DNA of 64,000 nt, from IMG/VR virus record IMGVR_UViG_3300040801_002379, positions 1 to 64,000 of that record; one strand, given 5' to 3'. The notes beneath the pieces were generated by a model, which saw nothing but the letters and a program-made list of their open reading frames with translations, did no database searches and was not told the DNA's origin. Below are positions 1,923-21,286 of this stretch, in pieces. Both the position numbers and the translations under genes were made by a program. Every line of letters starts with the position of its first letter. Positions within the stretch are counted from its first letter, which is position 1. The DNA is from a virus.

Positions 1923-2267
1923 TCACCGCCGGCTGTAGAAGACGATGGTGACGGGTGCGTTGCCGCTCGTACTTTTCACGTAGATGGGACCACGAGTCTT
2001 CTCGCCCCGTTCGTTGCCGACCACGTAGGGCCATAGCTCGGCGGGGCCTTCGAAGTAGTCCCCGACCGAACCCGTGGCGACCAGCTCGACGTAATTCTCA
2101 TCCGCGGTCGCATCGTCCTCGTCGAAGTAGAAGCGAACGGGTGAGGTGTGCCCGTTGAAGACCTGAATGTAGAACGTCGGCTCCGTCGGGAAGATGGCCT
2201 CTGCGGCGGCGTCGCCCACGGTCTCTCGCCGAATGTACGGTGCTCCTTGTGCTCTGCCGCCTGCCAT
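1923..2267 (-). CDS. hypothetical protein (head-module, 114 aa)
   Basis: Complete ORF with normal composition. Its start overlaps the stop of the upstream gene at 2267. Confidence 0.55.
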   Translation of the reverse strand: MAGGRAQGAPYIRRETVGDAAAEAIFPTEPTFYIQVFNGHTSPVRFYFDEDDATADENYVELVATGSVGDYFEGPAELWPYVVGNERGEKTRGPIYVKSTSGNAPVTIVFYSRR

Positions 2268-2686
2268 CAGTCAGCTCCCTCCAGGATTCGCTGAATCAGC
2301 GCGTCCTTGCTCAGCTTCTTCGCTTCGGCTTGCTCTGTCTCGTCCAGAAAATCGAGGAGGTCGGCCTTCGTGAAGGACTTCAGGTCCTCTTCGGTGTAGC
2401 CCTCGTCCTCGTCGAGGCTGTCCAGGACGTCGGCGAGCTGCTCGGCCTGAGAGGCCTCCTGCGGCTCGCTGACGGGCTCGGGCTCGGGGGGTACCTGAGG
2501 CTGGGGAGGAGGTGTCGGGGCCGAGGAGCCCGCGTTGAGGGCCTTCCAGTCCCGGCTCTCCAGGAGCTGCGCCGCGTGTTTCGGGGGGATGCCTTTCAGG
2601 ACGTCGCCTTCCCATTGGTCGTAGATAGCGCCCTCGATGCCGATTCGCTGGCCGGGGAGGGTTTTCTTGAGTGCTCGAAGGTCCAT
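2267..2686 (-). CDS. hypothetical protein with Pro-rich linker and acidic C-terminus (SAP/Rho-N-like helix LSKDALIQRIL)
   Basis: 139-aa ORF whose ATG is preceded by GAAAGGAAAG. It is the first gene after the MCP hairpin. Confidence 0.55.
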   Translation of the reverse strand: MDLRALKKTLPGQRIGIEGAIYDQWEGDVLKGIPPKHAAQLLESRDWKALNAGSSAPTPPPQPQVPPEPEPVSEPQEASQAEQLADVLDSLDEDEGYTEEDLKSFTKADLLDFLDETEQAEAKKLSKDALIQRILEGAD

Positions 2687-2715
2687 GGCTTTCCTTTCGT
2701 GTTCAGTAGAGGACA

Positions 2716-2749
2716 GGGGGAGGGGAGGCGACTCCGCCCCCCTCTCCCC
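2716..2749 (-). terminator. GC-rich hairpin downstream of the major capsid gene (possible attenuating terminator)
   Basis: GGGGGAGGGGAGGCG-actc-CGCCCCCCTCTCCCC, about 13 bp of stem with one bulge. It lies between the MCP stop (2776) and the next start (2686). There is no clear U-tract. Confidence 0.4.
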
Positions 2750-2775
2750 TATCCTAAGTCACTGGATTCGCTGAA

Positions 2776-4248
2776 TCAGAAGGACCCGGAGGCCCGACCG
2801 ATGTTCTTCATCAGCAGAATCTTGCCCGGCGTGTACAGTACGGGAACCCCGTACACGAGCTGCATCCACCGGATGCTCGTGTCCACCGTGGCCAGGGGAA
2901 TCTTGACCATCGGTGCGAGCTGCTTGAACGACACCGCCTCCAGGTTCATCTGGAAGAGGATGGCGTAGGTGGTGCCCGGAAGCTCCGCGTTGGCGTCCAC
3001 GAAGGTCGTGGTGCCCGAGGAGTCCCGACGAACCCGGCCGATGAGCCGCTCGGTCCCGAGCGCGCCGCTGGCCTCGGTCCGGAAGACCTCGTAGTAGCGG
3101 GGCGTCGGAGCGCCAGCACCGTCGGTGATGGTCACCGTGACGAGGTTGTTCACCGCCGTCACCGTGGCCGCCGCCGCGTTGGCCACCTTGGCGGACTTGC
3201 CGCCGAAGCCGACCGCCACGACCGAGTAGTTGTAGGTCCCCGCCTCGGCCGCGGTGAACGTGGTGTTGCCATCACGTCGCGCCTTGGTCGGAGTCCCCGT
3301 GGTGCCGGCCACCGCCGCCACCGCCGACGGGGCCGGCGGCGGGTTCGAGCCACGGGCCTGCGTCGGAGCGATGCGACCGGGCTGGATGAAGGTGTCCGGC
3401 TCGAAGGCGACGTTGCCCGCGGGGGAAACGTAGCCACCGATGTCCAGACCCACCAGACCGTCGTCCCGCTTCTGGAGCAGGTCGTACCGAGCCTTGGGGA
3501 AGAAGCTCTTCACCAGGTCGGCATGGTTCCGCGGGTTGAGGAAGAGGTGCGTCGGCGTGCCGTAGTTGGGCGCGTCGTGGACGATGAGGGACGAATCGAT
3601 GAGATTGTCCTCGGTGATGGGCGCACCGCGGAGGTCGAGGATGTTCGAGTCCGGCGAACCGGACCCGCCCGTCGAAGGACCTTCCTCGATGAGCTTCACG
3701 AAGCCGTCCCACTGCACGGGGTCGACGGCCGCGTCCCCGAGGAACAGCGACTGCTCGACCGCGCGAAGCAGGTGCATCGTGCCGTTGACCGTCTCCTGCG
3801 CGACCACGTTGCCGTGAGCGGGGCGAACGAGGCTCATCACGTGAGTGACGCGCCGCGTGGTGCCCATGTACTTCACGACGTTGAAGTTGCGCTCGTACTC
3901 AGCATCGGTCTCGGACGGCAGAGCGCCCTCCTCGATGAACGAGTCGAGGTCCTCACCGTACGACTGAATCTGGTTGTACTCCTCGACCGTGTTGTAGGCC
4001 TGGAGCTTGGGAAGGGCCTTGAACAGCCGGATGTGCTCCATCCGGAACGTGACGTTCCGAAGGGTGCGCTCCAGCGACTCGACCCGCAGCGCGAAGCCGT
4101 CGCCAGCGACGACGTTCGCGGGAGGGTTGATGTCCTGCCCCGCAGAGAGGGCCTTGAGCAGGTTGCTCAGGTCCTCTTCGTTGGCGCTCCCGAAGCCGTT
4201 GATGCCCTCGTGGTCACGCCAGGTGATGATGTTCTGTCCACCGTACAT
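2776..4248 (-). CDS. major capsid protein (HK97-fold type) with Ala/Gly/Thr-rich surface insertion
   Basis: 490 aa, in the canonical protease-scaffold-MCP order. The N-terminal segment ..ESLERTLRNVTF..LPKLQAYNTVEEYNQIQSYG.. resembles capsid families. An SD-like GAAAGGAAAC precedes the ATG. Confidence 0.75.
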   Translation of the reverse strand: MYGGQNIITWRDHEGINGFGSANEEDLSNLLKALSAGQDINPPANVVAGDGFALRVESLERTLRNVTFRMEHIRLFKALPKLQAYNTVEEYNQIQSYGEDLDSFIEEGALPSETDAEYERNFNVVKYMGTTRRVTHVMSLVRPAHGNVVAQETVNGTMHLLRAVEQSLFLGDAAVDPVQWDGFVKLIEEGPSTGGSGSPDSNILDLRGAPITEDNLIDSSLIVHDAPNYGTPTHLFLNPRNHADLVKSFFPKARYDLLQKRDDGLVGLDIGGYVSPAGNVAFEPDTFIQPGRIAPTQARGSNPPPAPSAVAAVAGTTGTPTKARRDGNTTFTAAEAGTYNYSVVAVGFGGKSAKVANAAAATVTAVNNLVTVTITDGAGAPTPRYYEVFRTEASGALGTERLIGRVRRDSSGTTTFVDANAELPGTTYAILFQMNLEAVSFKQLAPMVKIPLATVDTSIRWMQLVYGVPVLYTPGKILLMKNIGRASGSF

Positions 4249-13735: not shown

Positions 13736-14005
13736 TCAGCTTGCGTGCCGTCGTGCGAGCGAGCTGTCCACCCGAATGTCGTAGAACAGCCCCGCCAGTG
13801 CGGGGAACTCGGCCTCCAGTTTCAAGTCTCGAACCCCTTCAATCCACTGCTTCGCGTACCGAGCTGCGACCGACATGCCCAGCTCGGTGAGGACGCCATC
13901 CTCGTCCTCGACGCCCTCGGCTTTCTGGAGGACGTCACCCACCAGGCCAAGAACATGGAGGCTGGACGGACCTCGTCCGTGCGTCTCCTTGATGATGAAC
14001 TTCAT
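13736..14005 (-). CDS. hypothetical protein
   Basis: 89 aa. The ATG overlaps the stop of the MuF-like gene (ATGA at 14005-14002). Confidence 0.5.
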   Translation of the reverse strand: MKFIIKETHGRGPSSLHVLGLVGDVLQKAEGVEDEDGVLTELGMSVAARYAKQWIEGVRDLKLEAEFPALAGLFYDIRVDSSLARRHAS

Positions 14006-17000
14006 TGGTCGTCCTCCGCCAGAACGTACCGGTTCTGACCATCCGAGAGAACCTCAATCAATAGCCCTTGGGAGGCACTGAAGCGCTTTGGCTTCGAGGT
14101 CTTGTCGATGTTCTGCGTGATTCGATTGAGCTTGAGCAGGCCGCGAGCCCAGCTCTCCCCCTCAGCTTCGGATTTCTGGAGGGTGATGAGCGCCTGGAGC
14201 CCGTCGAACTGGTCCGCCAGGTCCTCCTCGTGGAGGATGCCGGTGCCGTCCGCGGTCTTCTCGAAGATGGGGACACCCCGGTAGTCACTGTTGTCGATGA
14301 GCACCGCGGAGTCACACGCCGCCGCCACCGCTGCGAAATTGGACGGTACGCGCTGGTAGATGCTCCGTACGAGCCTCGGGTCGACGAACCGGCCCGTCTC
14401 CTTCCCCCGCCTCTCGACCCGCTCCAGGGCCTCCTGAGGCTCGACATGGGTCATCACCAGGCGGACCTCGTAGCCCTTGTCCCGCAGCTCCAGGGCCTGG
14501 TTGACGAAGTCGTCCTTGTCGGCGCCAGTCCGGTCGATGACGACGTCCCGCATCTCGCTGAGCGCCCGCTGCTGGAGCGCGACCATGACGCCGTGGCTCT
14601 CGTGCTGGCACGCGCTGGCCGCGGTACGGTAGCCCTCATCAATCATCTGTCGGTACTCGGGGAGCTGCTCCTTGACCGTGTCGGAGTTGATTTCGACGGC
14701 GCCAGCGCCAGCACCAATCTTCTCCAGAAGAGAGGTCTTGCCGGAGGCCGGACCGCCCATGGAGATAGTCGCCACCGGCTTCCGGTCCTTCGGCGGAGGC
14801 TTGGCCTTCGAAAGCGCCTTCTCGATGATTTCGTCATGGAGCGCCTTTCGCTCTGGATTCCACGCACCCTTCTCAGCATCGAAGTGCACCTGTTCGGTGC
14901 CGCCTCGACGACCGAACATCGAAGGCTGCCATGCCTCTCGGTCGAACTTGGGCTCCGGAATCCACGTCGGATAGCCGGTCTTCCAACCGTACTCCTCCTG
15001 CTCCTTCTTCTGCTTCGCCTTCACCGGAGTACGCTTCCAAGGGATGGTGTGCTGGGGGTCAGCCCACATGCCCCCGCGAGGGCCGATGTACGGACCGCCA
15101 GCTTTCTGGAAGGGCTGAGCGACGCCGGCTCGATGGTTCCGGAACCAACCCGCGATGAGCTTCATGGCTCGACGTCGGTTTTCTGGAGTCAGCTCCCGCC
15201 GAATCTCACGCCAGCGCGGGCTGTTCTTCATCGCCCAGAGGACCGGGCTTCGTGTCTTCACCTTCGCGTCCTGCGCCGACTTCTTGTCGTTGAGGTCGCG
15301 GAAGACCTCCTGCATGTGCGCGGCGACCTCGGCGGGCTGGTTGACGTACTGCTTGTAATCGCGAGCACCGGCCGTGCGACTGGTCGACTTCTGACGGCCC
15401 GTCTGGAGCCGGGCCTTGATGCCCGGGTCGATGGCGTGCGTCATCTCGTGCGCGAGCGAATTCCGAAGCTCCTGAGCGAGCCCGGCGGGGTCGGTCTTCA
15501 ATCCCGGAGGGACGAACAAGGTGATGAGCGCACCGTTGTTCCTCTTGCTGAAGTCAATCTGGCCTTCGAACGCTACCCTCTTGTTCCAGCCAATCTGGAC
15601 CTGGACGCGGCGCTCGCCCATCTTCGTCAGGTACTTCAGGCCGACGAGGTCATCGACGTCGACGAGGCCGTTCGCGCCTGGAGCGACCTGGCTCATGAAG
15701 GTGTCGATGATGGAATGAACCTTCTCGTTCTCGATGTGCGGGACGCCTTCGCGCGCCTTCCACGGAATCTTGTGCTGGGGGTCCTCCCATAGGCCACCGC
15801 GGGGACCGACGAACGGGACCGACTTCTCGACGTGAACCTGCTTCAGCTTCGTGTAGTAGCGCGGGTCCTCGGCCAGGTGGTCGAGCGCAATCTCGCGAGC
15901 GACCTGCCGGTCGTTCGTGTGCTCCAGCTCGACTTCGATGCCCATCTTGAGCTGTTCGGGGTCGACGTCTTCAGGCTTGAGCTTGTCGCCCTTCCCGCCG
16001 GGAAGGCGGTCCGCTTTCTGGAACCCGGCCGCCTCGATTTCGTTGGGGTCCAGATTGAAGGTGACGATGAGGCGTTCGCGGAGCCGCTCCTCGTAGTCGT
16101 CGGGTAGCTCGAACGGATATTCCCGGTCCTGTCGAGTAGGGTCGGCCACGTTCGGTGCTGTCCGGCGTACTCGACGGCCGATTTCCTCCTCCAGGAACTT
16201 CCGGTTCTCAGGGATTTGCGCAATCTGCCGGAGGCCCAGCTCCTGCGCGGGCCCACGCGCGGGGTCGTACGGGTAGACGTTCTCCTTGATGTCGACGCCC
16301 GGGATGCGGCGGTAGACCTCGGTGGGCTTGCGGACAACGAACTGTCGGTCGGTCCGCTGCTCGGCTCGGACGTCCTCGCCGGCCAGCTCCTGCGGTGTGA
16401 CCTGCACGCGAGGCTGAGCCGCCTGGAGGTGGGCGAAGGGGTTGTCCATCCCGATGACGAGCTGGGGCCCGGATGTGCCCCGGTCGACGGCCCGCTGGCC
16501 CATGTGGCTCCACTGCGCCGCGTCCTCGGCCCTCAGGCCGCCCGCAGAGCGCGCCTGGTAGCCGCCAGTGGGCGTGGGCTCGCCGATAGGGGCAAGGGTC
16601 GCCTTCATCATTCCGTCCGCCAGGATGCCTCCTGGACGCCGCAGAGCGAGCACCTTGGCCCGGAACTCCTCCAGCGGGACGATGCTCATCGCCCCGTAGA
16701 ACTCCTCGCGGTCGTAGTGGATGAGGTAGGCATCCCGGGCCGTGTGTGGGTCAGGGAAACCGACCATGGCCTTGTCCTCGTCCCACTCGCCGCTCTCGGG
16801 GTCGACCTGGTGGACGATGTAGACGTTGGGCGCTGTCGGGTCGGGACCCACGTAGACGTCGTACTCGTCCCCGTCGGGACCGAGCGTACCCTCGACGTAG
16901 CCGTAGGCGAAGAACATCCGAGTCTGGCCCTCGTAGCCGGTCGGGTCCGTCCAGCGGCGGACGTCGCCCACGCGCTGCTCGATGGCGATGGGCAGGCCTT

Positions 17001-18849
17001 GGAAGTTGAGGCGGTCCTTGATGCGGAACGATTTCTGGAGATTGTCCTCCAGCTTCATGGCCTTCTCGGCGTCCGCTTCGGACTCGTACTTCACACCGAG
17101 CTTGCCGCCAGGAACCAGGTCGCCCTCCTCGTCGAAGCCCCAGCCTTCTGGAACTCGGATGAGCTGGCATTGGCAGTTGTGAGAAGCGATGCCGTTGGCG
17201 ACGTAGCTTTCGGTGTTCTGGACAGTCAGATTCCAGACTCTGCCCTTGAACTTCCGCGAACTGACACTGACAATGCGTTCGTGGCTAAGGACCGAGTCAA
17301 CCTCGACACGCCCACCATCCTCCGGATGCACTTCGATGAGCTGCGTTCGGTGCAGGAGATAGCAAAGACCTTCGGGGTCAGCCGTGGGACCATAGCTCTC
17401 CGCATCCGGAAGGCTGGCCTCGAACCTCGCGGCGTCGCCGCCGGACAGAAGGCTCGATACGCCAAGGGGCTCAAAGCGAACGTAGTCGCCGCTCACGAGG
17501 CCCGTCGGGGTATGAGTGAACGACACGAAGTCCTCGTCGCCCACGCGAAGCGTCGAGCCGGAAAGATGAACGGGCCCAACGAAGCCGCGCTGCGCGATGC
17601 TCTGGTCAGGCGCGGGCTTGAGCCTCACCCGAACTACGCCGTCGACGTCTTCAACATCGACCTGGCGTTTCCAGACGAACAGGTGGCCGTCGAAGTCGAT
17701 GGCGGTAACTGGCATTCCAGTCCCCGAAAGCAGAAGCAGGACGCGCGCAAAACGACCTTCCTCCAGTCCAGAGACTGGCTCGTGCTGCGCTACCAATTCT
17801 ACAAGGTCTTCGACGTCGAGGCCTACGCGGACGAGGTCTTGTCCATTCTGGAGCAAAGACGCAGCGACCCATCCGTCTGAGGTGAAAAGCTGGTGGTCAG
17901 GCGTCGCCTCAACCGTGCTACCCTCGGTCTGGACAATCACCATCTCGGTCGTGGCCATCTGGCTCCAAACCGAAGTCACCTTCTGGACAGTCCCGTCGTG
18001 GCTCACCACGTCCATCCCAGGCGTCATATGCTCGATGGGTACTTCACCATCCGGGGTGAGGATGGACGTCCCTTCTGGATGGCAGTGAGGATGGACCGGA
18101 CCGACGACCGCCTTCCAGTTGGCCGTCTTCACGCCGACGTTGGACCCGTGGCTCTCCAGAGTGCTGAGCCGGAAGAGCCGCGGCTTGCCGTCTGGTCCGA
18201 TGTGGAGCCGGAGGCAGTGCTTGCAGGCGTCGGGCATGGGCTGCTTGTAGACCCAGGGGTCGCCATGCTCTGCCCGGTACTGGTCCGCGACGCCCCGGTT
18301 CATGGCGTTCACCTTCTCGGTGATGGCCACCCGATTCCAGTCACGCTCCCAATCCTCGATGCGGCGTCCCAGCTCGAACTTGAGCGCGCCGATGCTCTCC
18401 CTTTTCTGGACGTTCAGAGCTGTCTGGTCCTGGACGATGCGCATCGCCTCTGCCCGGTACTGCGCGTCTTCGGCGAAGACCATCATGTCCATCTGCTGCT
18501 GGACCTTGGCCCCGAGATGGCGGATGTGCGCGCCCGCGTACTGCTGAGCCGCCTGGACAGCAGACTGCTCGGCACCGCTGAGCGTGACCGGGTTCTTCTT
18601 CAGCCATTTGGTGAACTCAGCGAAGTCCATGTCCGGGTCGACCTTCCCGGACTGCGCCATGGCCTGGCCGTAGATGTAGCTCTGCTTGATGCTCTCCAGA
18701 ATCTCGGCGGCCTTCTCGTCCGAGAGGACATCCTCTTCACGAGGCGTGAGCGCGTCGGGCCCAATGAGCTTCAGCACCAGGGCCGCGTGGTGCTTTTCGA
18801 TGATGGCCCGTACCTGGTCGAGCTGCTCGGGCGTGAAGAGGGTGGGCAT
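14002..18849 (-). CDS. MuF/SPP1-gp7-like head morphogenesis 'polyvalent' protein (intein-containing) with pyrophosphatase-like, DUF5661-like, zincin and Zeta-toxin-like kinase modules
   Basis: The MuF motif HPH|CQC is reconstituted after intein removal. Other modules: YGYVEGTLGPDGDEYDVYV..DEDK (family I PPase-like), GGKGD..VELEHT..DHLAEDPRYYTKL, HEMTH, and the P-loop MGGPASGKTS with QHESH and IDRTG (Zeta family). It sits downstream of the portal. Confidence 0.85.
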   Translation of the reverse strand: MPTLFTPEQLDQVRAIIEKHHAALVLKLIGPDALTPREEDVLSDEKAAEILESIKQSYIYGQAMAQSGKVDPDMDFAEFTKWLKKNPVTLSGAEQSAVQAAQQYAGAHIRHLGAKVQQQMDMMVFAEDAQYRAEAMRIVQDQTALNVQKRESIGALKFELGRRIEDWERDWNRVAITEKVNAMNRGVADQYRAEHGDPWVYKQPMPDACKHCLRLHIGPDGKPRLFRLSTLESHGSNVGVKTANWKAVVGPVHPHCHPEGTSILTPDGEVPIEHMTPGMDVVSHDGTVQKVTSVWSQMATTEMVIVQTEGSTVEATPDHQLFTSDGWVAASLLQNGQDLVRVGLDVEDLVELVAQHEPVSGLEEGRFARVLLLLSGTGMPVTAIDFDGHLFVWKRQVDVEDVDGVVRVRLKPAPDQSIAQRGFVGPVHLSGSTLRVGDEDFVSFTHTPTGLVSGDYVRFEPLGVSSLLSGGDAARFEASLPDAESYGPTADPEGLCYLLHRTQLIEVHPEDGGRVEVDSVLSHERIVSVSSRKFKGRVWNLTVQNTESYVANGIASHNCQCQLIRVPEGWGFDEEGDLVPGGKLGVKYESEADAEKAMKLEDNLQKSFRIKDRLNFQGLPIAIEQRVGDVRRWTDPTGYEGQTRMFFAYGYVEGTLGPDGDEYDVYVGPDPTAPNVYIVHQVDPESGEWDEDKAMVGFPDPHTARDAYLIHYDREEFYGAMSIVPLEEFRAKVLALRRPGGILADGMMKATLAPIGEPTPTGGYQARSAGGLRAEDAAQWSHMGQRAVDRGTSGPQLVIGMDNPFAHLQAAQPRVQVTPQELAGEDVRAEQRTDRQFVVRKPTEVYRRIPGVDIKENVYPYDPARGPAQELGLRQIAQIPENRKFLEEEIGRRVRRTAPNVADPTRQDREYPFELPDDYEERLRERLIVTFNLDPNEIEAAGFQKADRLPGGKGDKLKPEDVDPEQLKMGIEVELEHTNDRQVAREIALDHLAEDPRYYTKLKQVHVEKSVPFVGPRGGLWEDPQHKIPWKAREGVPHIENEKVHSIIDTFMSQVAPGANGLVDVDDLVGLKYLTKMGERRVQVQIGWNKRVAFEGQIDFSKRNNGALITLFVPPGLKTDPAGLAQELRNSLAHEMTHAIDPGIKARLQTGRQKSTSRTAGARDYKQYVNQPAEVAAHMQEVFRDLNDKKSAQDAKVKTRSPVLWAMKNSPRWREIRRELTPENRRRAMKLIAGWFRNHRAGVAQPFQKAGGPYIGPRGGMWADPQHTIPWKRTPVKAKQKKEQEEYGWKTGYPTWIPEPKFDREAWQPSMFGRRGGTEQVHFDAEKGAWNPERKALHDEIIEKALSKAKPPPKDRKPVATISMGGPASGKTSLLEKIGAGAGAVEINSDTVKEQLPEYRQMIDEGYRTAASACQHESHGVMVALQQRALSEMRDVVIDRTGADKDDFVNQALELRDKGYEVRLVMTHVEPQEALERVERRGKETGRFVDPRLVRSIYQRVPSNFAAVAAACDSAVLIDNSDYRGVPIFEKTADGTGILHEEDLADQFDGLQALITLQKSEAEGESWARGLLKLNRITQNIDKTSKPKRFSASQGLLIEVLSDGQNRYVLAEDDQ
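17176..18084 (-). mobile_element. intein (303 aa) inserted in the HPxCxC motif of the MuF-like gene
   Basis: Cys1 codon at 18084-18082 (..VHPH|CHPEGTSILTPDGE). Block B is TPDH. The C-terminal blocks ..VWNLTVQNTESYVANGIASHN|C end at 17176. All codon positions were checked against the ORF frame. Confidence 0.85.
17281..17880 (+). CDS. HTH + Vsr/DUF559-like PD-(D/E)xK endonuclease (putative homing endonuclease) encoded antisense inside the intein
   Basis: This is the C-terminal ~185-200 codons of plus ORF 16216-17880. HTH: SVQEIAKTFGVSRGTIALRIRKAGL. Nuclease: NEAALRDALVRRGLE..YAVDVFNIDLAFPDEQVAVEVDGGNWH..DARKTTFLQSRDWLVLRY. Composition is normal (K, N, F, Y, Q), unlike the upstream part of the same ORF. 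The start is uncertain (GTG 17281 or ATG 17326). Confidence 0.7.
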   Translation: MAKDRVNLDTPTILRMHFDELRSVQEIAKTFGVSRGTIALRIRKAGLEPRGVAAGQKARYAKGLKANVVAAHEARRGMSERHEVLVAHAKRRAGKMNGPNEAALRDALVRRGLEPHPNYAVDVFNIDLAFPDEQVAVEVDGGNWHSSPRKQKQDARKTTFLQSRDWLVLRYQFYKVFDVEAYADEVLSILEQRRSDPSV

Positions 18850-18855
18850 GGCAGG

Positions 18856-19116
18856 TCACTCCTTGGCTCCGTCCAGAACCTTGCCGATTTCCTTGACCAT
18901 GCTCTTGTACGTGTCCTGCACGATGCGGCGCTCCTTTTCGTGCAGGCCCTTGAGCATGTCGTAGCGGAGGGTGGGCTGCGACTCCGCTTTCTGGATGATG
19001 TCGTCTGGATGTACGAGGTCGAGCGGGTCCACACCCAGCTTGCGGGCCAGGCTCTTCACCAGCTCGGGGCCCTTCTGGACCAGCTCCTCCGCAGTCCCTT
19101 CGACCTTCAGCTTCAC
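18856..19116 (-). CDS. hypothetical protein
   Basis: 86 aa, helical and charged. The start overlaps the upstream stop. Confidence 0.5.
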   Translation of the reverse strand: MKLKVEGTAEELVQKGPELVKSLARKLGVDPLDLVHPDDIIQKAESQPTLRYDMLKGLHEKERRIVQDTYKSMVKEIGKVLDGAKE

Positions 19117-19526
19117 GACGCCGGAGCCCCGAACGCGGTCACGACCGCGGTGAGTGCAGTAGCTCCCGCGACGATGGACAGACCGGCCGGAAGCGGGGAG
19201 CCGTGCATGAAGAACTGAGCGAGGTTGCCCGTGGCCGTCCCCGGTCGAACGAGCGGGATGTCGACGGGGCCTGAGCCGAAGTCGATGCTGAGCGTGCAGT
19301 CCTGGTCGGTCTCGACCAGAAGCCCTCGAATCTCGTCTCCGGAAACCGCGGCGAAGTCGCCGAGGTCGACGGCCTCCGTAGCCAACCCAGCGACCGCCAC
19401 CTTCTTCGAGGTGTAGCGCTCGAACGTGTCGAACTGCTGCGTTCTGGACAGCTCGAAGAACTTGAAGTCCTCCGACGGTGTGTCGTAGACGGTCAGTGCA
19501 ATGGTGCTCTGGACTCGTAGTGCCAT
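19113..19526 (-). CDS. hypothetical protein (beta-rich, head module)
   Basis: 137-aa ORF, starting 4 nt after the stop of the 55-aa ORF. Confidence 0.55.
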   Translation of the reverse strand: MALRVQSTIALTVYDTPSEDFKFFELSRTQQFDTFERYTSKKVAVAGLATEAVDLGDFAAVSGDEIRGLLVETDQDCTLSIDFGSGPVDIPLVRPGTATGNLAQFFMHGSPLPAGLSIVAGATALTAVVTAFGAPAS

Positions 19527-19529
19527 GGT

Positions 19530-19697
19530 CTAGTCCTCGTACACGGTCTCGTCGGTGTCGACGAGTCCAGATTGTGGCCGGCCGCTCTTGTCGAGCCGGC
19601 GCTTTCGAAGCTCTTCCTCGCGCTGGCGATTCTTCGCCTCGCGTTCGCGCATCAGCTTCCGCACTTCGCGCTTCTGTTCTTCAGTGAGGCTACTCAT
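19530..19697 (-). CDS. small basic coiled-coil protein (55 aa)
   Basis: Below the ORF-track size cutoff. Sequence MSSLTEEQKREVRKLMREREAKNRQREEELRKRRLDK... Its ATG overlaps the portal stop (ATGA) and it fills the gap exactly. Confidence 0.45.
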   Translation of the reverse strand: MSSLTEEQKREVRKLMREREAKNRQREEELRKRRLDKSGRPQSGLVDTDETVYED

Positions 19698-21286
19698 ACC
19701 TCGACCTCCAATCGAATGCTCTTCTCGACTTCCTCGCCGTCACCATCCTGGCCCAGCGCCTGGAAGTCCTCCTCGGCGAATTCGTCAGGAGCCTCGTCCT
19801 CGCCGCCGCCGTTCGGGAACGAGAAGTTGCCGGGCATGGCGCCTTGCTCCTGCGCCATCTTCATCTGCTCCTGTCCAGAACGCCACTGGATGTAGGCCGG
19901 GTCCAGAATGACGTCACCGTACGGGTCGGGAGGAAGGTCCTGCTCGGCCCGCAGCTCGTTCAGCGTGTGCGTGGTCTTCACGCGCTTCTGGTTGAGCGTG
20001 GCCAGCTCGTCCTTCGTCTCTTCCTCCAGGCCGACGAACTCGAACTTCCAGTCCTTATCGATGGGCTGGATGATGTGGCTGGTGAGCGAGTCGGCGATGT
20101 GTTGAAGCAGCGGCTTCAGGCCCTTGTCCTTGGACGCCGTCAGTTTCGCGTGCGTTCCCGACTCGAACATCGCCTTGTCCTGGCCCTGGTTTCCGTAACG
20201 GAAATTCAGCTCCATCGGGTCGATTTGGTAGATGCCACTGACGAGCTTGATGAGAAAGTCCATCCACGCCGAGAACTCCATGTCTCGGTTCGTGTTCGTC
20301 ATGTTGACCCACTCAACCTTCCCATCACTGTTCAGTACGGGCGACCTCCAGGCGTTTTCGACACCACTTACCATCTGGTACCACTGCCGGCGGAACGCCT
20401 TCAGTTGGGTCTGGTTCATCGTGCCTTGGATGTTGAGTAGGCCCTTCGCGACCGTCCCCTGGTTGAAGAACTTCGAGTTGTAGTCGAAGCCCCAAAGCCA
20501 TGAGGTGATGGCGTTGATGAGCATCTCGATTTCCGAGTAGCCGTAGCCGTAGAGTCGGATGTTCGTGTGAGGGTTGCGGACGTTGAAGGCCATCTCGTGG
20601 CGGCGCCACTCGTTGATGACCATGTTGTCGTAGACCTGGACCGTCGTAATGAGGTCGGGGTCCTCGACGTAGGTGATGTTGACCGTGTCCGCGAGCCTGA
20701 TGGTGGACGCATCGACCGCTTGGAACTTGGCCGGCTGGCCCTTCCTATTCGGAACGACCTCATAGCAATACTGGTCGTACGTCAGCGAGTCGCGCCCAAT
20801 CTTCCGGATGAACGTGGGGAACGGGTCACGCGCGAGCGCGTAGTCCGTGACCCCCGTGGTCATCAGCATCGCCTCCACATTTCTGGAGAACTTGCGGTCC
20901 ACTGCCGTCAGCTCGACGTCATCCTCGACGGGCATCACCCGGAACCCAGGCGAGAACTTGTCCCGCTTGGGCCGGGCGAAGGCCGCAATCTGATTGAGCC
21001 GCGTGACGATGATGGCCTGGACCAAGGGGACTTTCTGGACGATTTGCTGAAGCGTCCCGTACGTGATGGCCGAAGGCCTATCCTTGAATCCAAGCTGCTC
21101 GACGATGGCGAACGGGTCCCACATGAGGGCCCGTGCATCCATCTCGGCCGCGTCAACGGGGGGCTGCGAGTCAGGAACGACGTTCCCACTGTCTCCCTGA
21201 GCCGCCTTGGCGAGGTGCTCCGAGTACGCCGTCGCGGCGGTCAGGAAGTTGGTGGAGATGGCCCCGAATTGGTCCCTGATTCCCAT
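19694..21286 (-). CDS. portal protein
   Basis: 530 aa. The segment ..RRQWYQMVSGVENAWRSPVLNSDGKVEWVNM..DMEFSAWMDFLIKLVSGIYQIDPMELNF.. is typical of SPP1/HK97-type portals. The C-terminus is acidic. The gene lies between the terL side and the MuF-like gene. Confidence 0.8.
   Translation of the reverse strand: MGIRDQFGAISTNFLTAATAYSEHLAKAAQGDSGNVVPDSQPPVDAAEMDARALMWDPFAIVEQLGFKDRPSAITYGTLQQIVQKVPLVQAIIVTRLNQIAAFARPKRDKFSPGFRVMPVEDDVELTAVDRKFSRNVEAMLMTTGVTDYALARDPFPTFIRKIGRDSLTYDQYCYEVVPNRKGQPAKFQAVDASTIRLADTVNITYVEDPDLITTVQVYDNMVINEWRRHEMAFNVRNPHTNIRLYGYGYSEIEMLINAITSWLWGFDYNSKFFNQGTVAKGLLNIQGTMNQTQLKAFRRQWYQMVSGVENAWRSPVLNSDGKVEWVNMTNTNRDMEFSAWMDFLIKLVSGIYQIDPMELNFRYGNQGQDKAMFESGTHAKLTASKDKGLKPLLQHIADSLTSHIIQPIDKDWKFEFVGLEEETKDELATLNQKRVKTTHTLNELRAEQDLPPDPYGDVILDPAYIQWRSGQEQMKMAQEQGAMPGNFSFPNGGGEDEAPDEFAEEDFQALGQDGDGEEVEKSIRLEVEV

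Follow-up and report, generated by a model that had tools for sequence, protein, structure and literature searches.

Contiguous inteins with Vsr-like (VSR) homing endonucleases (HENs) whose genes lie on the anti-sense strand have been described by Gosselin, Arsenault and Gogarten in the 20 October 2025 version of their preprint (bioRxiv 10.1101/2025.01.02.630785). In the data presented there, the inteins of minor capsid proteins are exclusively non-canonical and the HEN was matched to the structures 1CW0 and 3R3P. Supplemental Table 1 of the preprint lists Malisha gp5, Angelicage gp15, Affeca gp15, Fosterous gp12 and Vivi2 gp14 as 'minor capsid, MuF-like ... VSR -1 ORF' (ORF, open reading frame), and anti-sense LAGLIDADG HENs are credited in it to Gorbalenya 1998 and Gogarten 2002. 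Vsr-like HENs between the halves of split inteins were reported by Dassa et al. 2009 (PMC2677866), with the nuclease gene co-oriented with the host gene and its 3' end overlapping the start of the downstream gene. I-Bth0305I was characterised by Taylor et al. 2011 (PMC3239194; PDB 3R3P), who named the EDxHD family. For inteins of the dnaX type, it has been proposed that a free-standing HEN secondarily invaded a mini-intein (Phillips et al. bioRxiv 10.64898/2026.09.14.751524). Here we analysed a 64,000-nucleotide stretch of viral DNA, positions 1 to 64,000 of IMG/VR record IMGVR_UViG_3300040801_002379 (the window), in which a MuF-like gene on the minus strand carries a 303-residue intein and the plus strand of the same DNA encodes a Vsr-like nuclease. 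The features of the locus are:

14002..18849, minus strand: host gene for a MuF-like polyprotein, a single uninterrupted ORF of 1615 amino acids.
18085..18849, minus strand: N-extein of 255 amino acids, with the C-terminal end ...AVVGPVHPH.
17176..18084, minus strand: class-1 intein of 303 amino acids (909 nucleotides), CHPEGTSILT...TPDH...ESYVANGIASHN, followed by the +1 Cys (Pfam, homologue alignment).
14005..17175, minus strand: C-extein, with the N-terminal start CQCQLIRVPEGWGF.
17881..18084, minus strand: N-terminal splicing region with blocks A and B, intein residues 1-68, free of the nuclease gene.
17176..17280, minus strand: C-terminal splicing block, intein residues 269-303; on the plus strand, these 105 nucleotides lie directly upstream of the nuclease start.
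17281..17880, plus strand: homing-endonuclease gene of 199 amino acids plus stop, antisense to intein residues 69-268 (Pfam, homologues, AlphaFold2 (AF2), frame selection).
17308..17412, plus strand: helix-turn-helix (HTH) DNA-binding module, nuclease residues ~10-44 (Sigma70_r4, AF2).
17575..17865, plus strand: Vsr-like/EDxHD nuclease core, residues 99-195, with D127, E138, D140, H145 and D154, plus E101 (Foldseek, phmmer).
17785..17880, both strands: two-frame overlap, intein residues 69-100, with the motif SDGWVAASLLQNGQDL after block B opposite the C-terminal helix and stop of the nuclease (codon alignments).

The window element shares with the Gordonia-phage inteins listed as VSR -1 ORF a contiguous class-1 intein, a MuF-like host protein, insertion just before the CxC of an H..CxC motif, and an antisense, codon-aligned, homologous Vsr-like nuclease with 3R3P and 1CW0 as structural relatives. 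A tblastn search with the window nuclease retrieves Malisha, Angelicage, Affeca and Fosterous (27-31% identity, E 1e-8 to 3e-5), and in the Malisha and Angelicage records, which we inspected, the match is antisense to the MuF genes. The window differs from these phages in its lineage, in its 1615-residue polyprotein with toxin-like domains, and in a nuclease that belongs to a subgroup at 40-44% identity. The earlier note on this DNA, made from the letters alone, knew of no antisense endonuclease gene nested inside a contiguous intein; such genes have been published in the preprint cited above. The arrangement is therefore already known, rare and only recently described, and the window is a homologue of the published examples, representing a new lineage and not a new principle.

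The other systems are less alike. The earlier note had pointed to Vsr-like endonuclease genes at the split-intein loci of Dassa et al., and these fractured genes share with the window the nuclease superfamily, the position between the N- and C-terminal splicing parts and the phage context, but there the host is split into two ORFs, whereas the window has one continuous ORF and an antisense nuclease. One relative in our collection (L006) combines both, having a split MuF gene as in Dassa et al. and an antisense nuclease. I-Bth0305I has the same Vsr-like core with aligned Asp/His/Asp residues, the same order of N-terminal DNA-binding and C-terminal nuclease parts, and likewise resides in a mobile intervening sequence of a phage gene. 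However, it is encoded on the sense strand of a group I intron of recA and has NUMODs, while the window nuclease is antisense in an intein and has a Sigma70_r4-type HTH rather than a recognised NUMOD, at ~18% identity. The Synechocystis/cyanobacterial dnaX intein also has an in-frame centre that is filler and a nuclease in an overlapping alternative frame, but its nuclease is of the LAGLIDADG type, and the host gene (dnaX) and the organisms (cyanobacteria) are others. The capsid morphogenesis protein of Snoke and the Jerseyviruses has the same insertion site (AHPN/C...AHN/CRS; here and below a slash marks the splice or insertion point), the same register and a nuclease of the same family at ~31-34% identity. 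It differs in that the intein alone was annotated by the Snoke annotators and in having Phe/Ala for D140/H145.

The intein boundaries given by the earlier note are exact. The Cys1 codon TGC occupies 18084-18082, where the minus strand reads ...GPVHPH and then CHPEGTSILTPDGEVPIEHM; the block B motif TPDH is at intein residues 61-64; and the intein ends in ...IASHN at 17176, with the +1 Cys codon at 17175-17173. The intein matched Intein_splicing PF14890 (2.4e-12, 47.4 bits, cut-off 35.8) and Hint_2 PF13403 (1.1e-7, 32.7 bits, cut-off 28.4) in Pfam. The Intein_splicing match spans residues 25-303 but uses only 129 profile positions, those of the N- and C-terminal blocks. The centre is left out of the match and is therefore extra sequence inserted into the splicing domain. 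Excision of the intein in silico gives HPHCQC, the motif that the earlier note had expected to be restored, and 12 of the 13 closest host-protein homologues (50-62% identity) are intein-less and read straight through, with 0 amino acids between VHPH and CQCQLIRVPEGWGF. The remaining homologue (P0019) carries a 326-residue intein there, which likewise has a codon-aligned antisense nuclease of its own.

The candidate homing substrate is the empty site reconstructed from the window, AAGGCGGTCGTCGGTCCGGTCCATCCTCAC/TGCCAATGCCAGCTCATCCGAGTTCCAGAA, together with the allele of homologue P0017, whose empty-site DNA is identical to the reconstructed site at 82/90 positions. The DNA of the N-extein is 82% identical to the intein-less allele in locus L029. 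A co-conversion tract around the site was considered (82/90, or 91%, against ~80% in the exteins), but motif conservation could explain the difference equally and we made no use of it. Palindromic symmetry in the reconstructed homing site reached at most 6/12, not above chance, and no second copy of the nuclease or of the intein was found within the window. A search with the intein alone returned no homologue at E<=1e-3 in a set of 5.8 billion proteins. The third-position GC of the whole intein is below that of the host gene, the splicing blocks having 0.71-0.75 and the exteins 0.84-0.88, which is consistent with a foreign origin.

The plus-strand product has the domains that the earlier note had read from its translation, an HTH followed by a Vsr/DUF559-type nuclease. 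The product of 17281-17877 matched three Pfam families above their cut-offs: MTES_1575 REase PF18741 (2.6e-11, 43.9 bits, cut-off 38.2), DUF559 PF04480 (4.1e-6, 27.1 bits, cut-off 20.6) and the Sigma70_r4 HTH (6.7e-6, 26.0 bits, cut-off 24.1). The AF2 model of the nuclease is confident over the whole protein (mean predicted local distance difference test score, pLDDT, 88.1) and consists of the HTH, with helices at 10-19, 24-31 and 35-44 (pLDDT ~95), a helical linker and an alpha/beta core at residues 99-195. Foldseek returned the catalytic domain of I-Bth0305I (3r3p) as the best PDB match (E=5.3e-4, prob 1.0, target template-modelling (TM) score 0.65), followed by E. coli Vsr (1cw0, E=0.012, prob 1.0; 1cw0 and 1vsr at prob 0.99-1.0), and also matched the DUF559 protein 3hrl. 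In the phmmer alignment to 3r3p, D127/H145/D154 fall on D196/H213/D222 of I-Bth0305I, the catalytic Asp/His/Asp of the EDxHD family, and E138 is at the extra conserved acidic position. E101 is likely the counterpart of I-Bth0305I E170, judging by conservation in the homologue alignment only.

Searches among the same 5.8 billion proteins found 16 homologues of the nuclease at 29-44% identity; the subgroup at 40-44%, to which the window nuclease belongs, comes mainly from metagenomic contigs. Several of the homologues start within 1-2 residues of GTG 17281, which is probably the start of the nuclease, with ATG 17326 as the alternative. Ten residues are invariant among 17 homologues (D127, A129, A136, E138, G141, G142, W144, H145, L161 and W166), and the catalytic and invariant core residues are all intact in the window copy. 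An exhaustive profile search yielded 480 cluster representatives at E<=1e-30.

The nuclease gene is the end of a longer plus-strand ORF (16216..17880). The first 355 codons of this ORF have no Pfam match and their codon-position GC follows the minus-strand gene, in keeping with the view of the earlier note that they are junk. Very long plus-strand ORFs lie antisense to the host gene (574, 554 and 441 amino acids, within 14068-19218), with products rich in L/V/D/G/R. They are a by-product of high third-position GC on the coding strand and not genes.

The two frames are in exact codon alignment in antisense, both running on triplets [3n-2..3n], as the earlier note had stated; the stop TGA of the nuclease (17878-17880) reads as a Ser codon, TCA, of the intein on the other strand. 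For the analysis of selection we collected 22 IMG/VR loci, four GenBank phage loci and the contigs of two nuclease homologues, and compared the window with each of 22 relatives on codon alignments, the pairs not being independent. In the N-terminal splicing block (intein residues 1-68), the amino acid identity was 0.30 in the minus frame and 0.14 in the plus frame, with the minus frame higher in 22/22 comparisons and the wobble at minus position 3 in 22/22. In the overlap (residues 69-100), the two frames tied at 0.26 and the wobble was split 9 to 10. In the nuclease core (residues 101-260), the plus frame was higher (0.36 vs 0.22) in 22/22 comparisons, and the substitutions were concentrated at plus position 3, which is minus position 1, in 22/22. 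In the C-terminal splicing block (residues 269-303), the minus frame was again higher (0.42 vs 0.19) in 22/22. The highest plus-frame identity (0.55) was in the bin 121-140, in the nuclease core. The picture was unchanged with all 253 pairs or with either guide alignment alone. Judged by these substitution patterns, the frame of selection switches at the segment borders, and its direction is unanimous.

Codon-position GC follows the same borders. GC at minus position 3 (plus position 1) and at minus position 1 (plus position 3) is 0.84-0.88 and 0.67-0.73 in the exteins, 0.71-0.75 and 0.46-0.60 in the splicing blocks, and 0.69 and 0.755 in the nuclease segment, the order being reversed in the nuclease segment only. 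The sign of the AT skew flips in 17001-18000. In the overlap at 17785..17880, both frames probably matter. The nuclease tail (L..R..P) appears conserved, but this may be a consequence of the GW..A..L motif of the intein on the other strand.

A further sign of selection comes from the three sense codons TTA, CTA and TCA, which are stops when read on the minus strand. They are absent from the nuclease gene in all 24 loci. In the window this is easily reached, as the earlier note had argued from the GC-rich genome, since the expected number is 0.5 and the P of zero is 0.58 under the codon usage of the host gene. Low-GC members have zero such codons against 5-13 expected from their own extein codon usage, with P from ~1e-3 to 7e-8 per locus: 1e-4 in L001 (Jerseyvirus), 4e-5 in L008, 9e-6 in L009 (34% GC), 3e-7 in L010, 5e-5 in L022 and 7e-8 in L023. 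Because the low-GC nuclease genes avoid these codons beyond chance, the read-through of the intein is under selection. At the level of the family, both strands are thus selected, the nuclease for its protein and the intein linker merely for staying open.

The arrangement is widespread. In 25 of 28 loci, a minus-strand frame runs without a stop through the nuclease gene, and 24 of these 25 are in register 0. The module occurs in 24 loci of 34-69% GC, always inserted at H[PD]x/CxC and always in register 0, and the 23 distinct contiguous loci that were aligned have the junctions H[PD]x/C...T..H...[HRS]N/CxC, with [HRS]N/C in 23/23. GenBank holds 101 phage records with a match to the window nuclease. 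In the Salmonella Jerseyvirus, Escherichia Kagunavirus (Snoke), Pseudomonas temperate-phage and Gordonia records inspected, and likewise in uncultured viral contigs down to 34% GC, the nuclease lies antisense inside a MuF/head-morphogenesis gene. Six annotated GenBank records were inspected; five have no annotation for it, and the sixth, vB_StyS-sam, has only a partial hypothetical ORF there.

Some lineages have altered catalytic residues. The Jerseyvirus, Kagunavirus and Pseudomonas copies (L001 2483-3235, plus strand; L031 1783-2535, plus strand; and L032, a plus-strand ORF ending at 3142, tblastn match 2501-3019) have AVEVFGGGWA or AVEIYSIHP for AVEVDGGNWH, so that the equivalents of D140 and H145 are replaced, and their long ORFs are intact. 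By their sequence, these copies may be inactive or repurposed.

Other arrangements of the same nuclease were found in the collected loci. In L027, an intein-less Phage_Mu_F gene (2088-3017, plus strand), ending in ...TLHPMCRCATALVIE and the stop, is followed ~40 nucleotides on by a free-standing, co-oriented nuclease gene (3060-3767, plus strand), which thus adjoins the motif that the intein occupies elsewhere. In L026, a free-standing antisense nuclease gene (3336-4031, plus strand; MTES_1575 1.2e-13) is flanked by a portal gene and a small ORF, and its surroundings contain neither an intein nor a MuF gene. In L006 (2166-4330), the MuF gene is fractured: the MuF part with the N-intein half runs into a stop at 3284, a new start for the C-intein half is found at ATG 2492 (MKLEHLSYDNFVYDLQVEEDESYTANGFVVHN/CAM), the nuclease is antisense between the split-intein halves, and the insertion is two residues downstream of that in the window (HPQDR/C). 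This spread of arrangements fits a homing endonuclease lineage associated with the MuF gene.

Each detail of the earlier note that could be tested was confirmed, and its three own checks (the profile matches of the plus-strand product, the lack of an endonuclease match in the minus-strand linker, and the frame that conservation follows) all favoured its interpretation. Taken together, these results make it likely that the window element is a mobile intein in which two genes use one piece of DNA on opposite strands. We propose that the MuF-like head protein is translated straight through the 303-residue insert, and that insert residues 1 to ~100 and 269-303 form a HINT splicing domain, which would excise the insert and join HPH to CQC. 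The ~170-200 residues between the blocks would be the antisense read-through of the nuclease gene, tolerated as a spacer. The HTH and EDxHD nuclease from the plus strand would cut intein-less MuF alleles of a co-infecting relative at or near the sequence coding for HPHCQC, and repair from the occupied allele would copy the intein and the nuclease together. Of this, the analysis establishes the intein boundaries, the folds, the selection across the family on each frame in its own segment, the common insertion site and the occurrence of empty alleles, and we infer plus-strand expression, cleavage specificity and protein splicing.

Several observations weigh against this proposal. Since the 105 nucleotides of plus strand at 17176..17280 lie directly upstream of the nuclease start, they must hold any expression signals borne by the element. 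A scan of 16800-18300 for sigma-70 promoters and terminators revealed no promoter; the single terminator it returned is at chance level and lies on the wrong strand. A Shine-Dalgarno sequence was found before neither candidate start in the window, nor in most relatives. The intactness of the ORF in the window proves nothing by itself, because open antisense frames are the norm in a genome of 63% GC: the plus frame stays open for the 355 further junk codons upstream (391 back to the nearest in-frame stop). The loss of D140/H145 in some members of the family also means that an intact ORF does not guarantee an active nuclease. The homologue searches found no relative with more than 45% nuclease identity, so that recent mobility of the window copy cannot be shown. 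In addition, the AF2 model of the intein, made from a 2-sequence alignment, has a pLDDT of 35 throughout and is uninformative on both the linker and the HINT fold; the linker is therefore called unstructured on selection patterns and not on a model.

A hexamer with some resemblance to a -10 element provides a lead on expression. In the window (17261-17283, plus strand), GACAAT is 6 nucleotides before GTG 17281, and TACAAT or TATTAT is found 6-9 nucleotides upstream in L007-L011 (~3472-3494). Such a -10-like hexamer is present in 7/23 loci against 9% of random positions, but five of the seven are from one clade, which drives the signal. On the opposite strand, the same six nucleotides are conserved Ile-Val codons of the intein in all but L010 (Ile-Ile). 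It might indicate a leaderless transcript of the nuclease gene.

The alternative that survives best is that the nuclease gene is a relic, once mobile and now unexpressed or inactive, left open because GC-rich sequence rarely makes stops, with the intein persisting because it must still splice. The open antisense frames expected here by chance, the absence of a recognisable promoter or ribosome-binding site upstream and the catalytically suspect copies in other lineages all agree with a relic, as do the mostly vertical patterns reported for several VSR-type clusters (bioRxiv 10.1101/2025.01.02.630785). However, the full set of catalytic and invariant residues in the window copy and the confident AF2 model over the whole nuclease speak against a relic. 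The window copy is also under the same plus-frame constraint in its comparison with all 22 relatives, and intein-less alleles dominate among close relatives, as for an element that is not yet fixed or has been lost and regained. We regard a relic as unlikely, though it deserves more weight than the other alternatives.

Considerably less probable is co-option, in which the plus-strand protein acts as an HTH regulator, or antisense transcription modulates MuF expression. The strong HTH module would suit a regulator; more than 60 genomes have Jerseyvirus-type copies whose long ORF is intact despite the loss of D140/H145; and a late structural gene would not go unaffected by convergent transcription across it. 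Against this, conservation in the family is highest in the nuclease core, which is kept in the window copy, and a nuclease gene that stands free or between split-intein halves next to the same MuF motif behaves as homing endonucleases typically do.

That the centre of the intein is a real, novel domain in the minus frame, with the plus ORF as its by-product, is hardly tenable. The centre does lie in one continuous annotated ORF, and intein residues 49-169 give a weak match to a PHROG 'head protein' profile (1.4e-4), the likely reason being that the same inteins, in translated form, are among the PHROG members. But such a domain is effectively refuted by the lack of a Pfam match to the centre, endonuclease families included as the earlier note had expected, and by the lower minus-frame identity with substitutions piling up at minus position 1 in 22/22 comparisons, the mark of a non-selected frame, while it is the plus product that has family, fold and catalytic-residue matches.

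Returning to the mobile two-strand intein, the family as a whole allows a broader and more tentative extension, which we think possible but doubtful. The element may be one old, dispersed two-strand module kept across phages of Proteobacteria, Actinobacteria and uncultured hosts, with the nuclease expressed from signals in the C-terminal block, possibly leaderless, and the free-standing, nested and split arrangements may be successive stages of one pathway that leads from a free-standing HEN through an intein-borne HEN to a fractured gene.

The host protein consists of the MuF-like N-domain, the intein, InPase PF18823 (3e-33), DUF5661 (9e-15) and a Zeta_toxin/AAA_33 kinase-like domain (2.5e-27), as matched in Pfam. 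The description of the host gene as MuF-like in the earlier note holds in part. The spliced N-domain did not reach the threshold of Phage_Mu_F PF04233 (11.4 bits against a cut-off of 29.6, E=0.55), although the match covers profile positions 4-112 and ends at HPHCQC. Comparison by hhalign with the bona fide MuF proteins among the hosts of this intein gave E=1.5e-4 (prob 52%), with an R..TE motif, a CxxC knuckle and HPxCxC aligned. From these profile comparisons, 'MuF-like' appears to be a fair name for a distant relationship below the PF04233 threshold. The C-terminal modules are swapped among homologues of the host protein; some have PF01743 instead, and in some the Zeta domain is absent.

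The host gene is just downstream of the portal gene (19694-21286, minus strand). The portal protein shares ~40% identity with those of large myoviruses of Bacillus, Exiguobacterium and Lysinibacillus, whose records are 138-150 kb long and which we take to be Herelleviridae-type. Related loci of host protein and intein were found on ~110-kb contigs. A DNA search with 16500-18900 (2.4 kb) against the phage collection gave no match. These findings suggest an undescribed GC-rich phage lineage of ~110 kb.

The present analysis extends the published examples by placing the module beyond actinobacteriophages, by quantitative evidence of selection on each strand, and by an insertion site and register that are conserved throughout. 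Overlapping antisense genes in which both strands are demonstrably selected are rare, and here the splicing domain and the nuclease must cooperate for the element to spread. The family is a clean natural experiment, in which the frame of selection flips at defined borders and AT-rich nuclease genes are forced off three sense codons. In practice, the antisense nuclease goes largely unannotated, and at loci of this kind the host gene is broken up or overlooked by metagenome gene callers. The results support the idea that the endonucleases of inteins arrive by secondary invasion of mini-inteins by free-standing HENs, and tie this process to the origins of split inteins.

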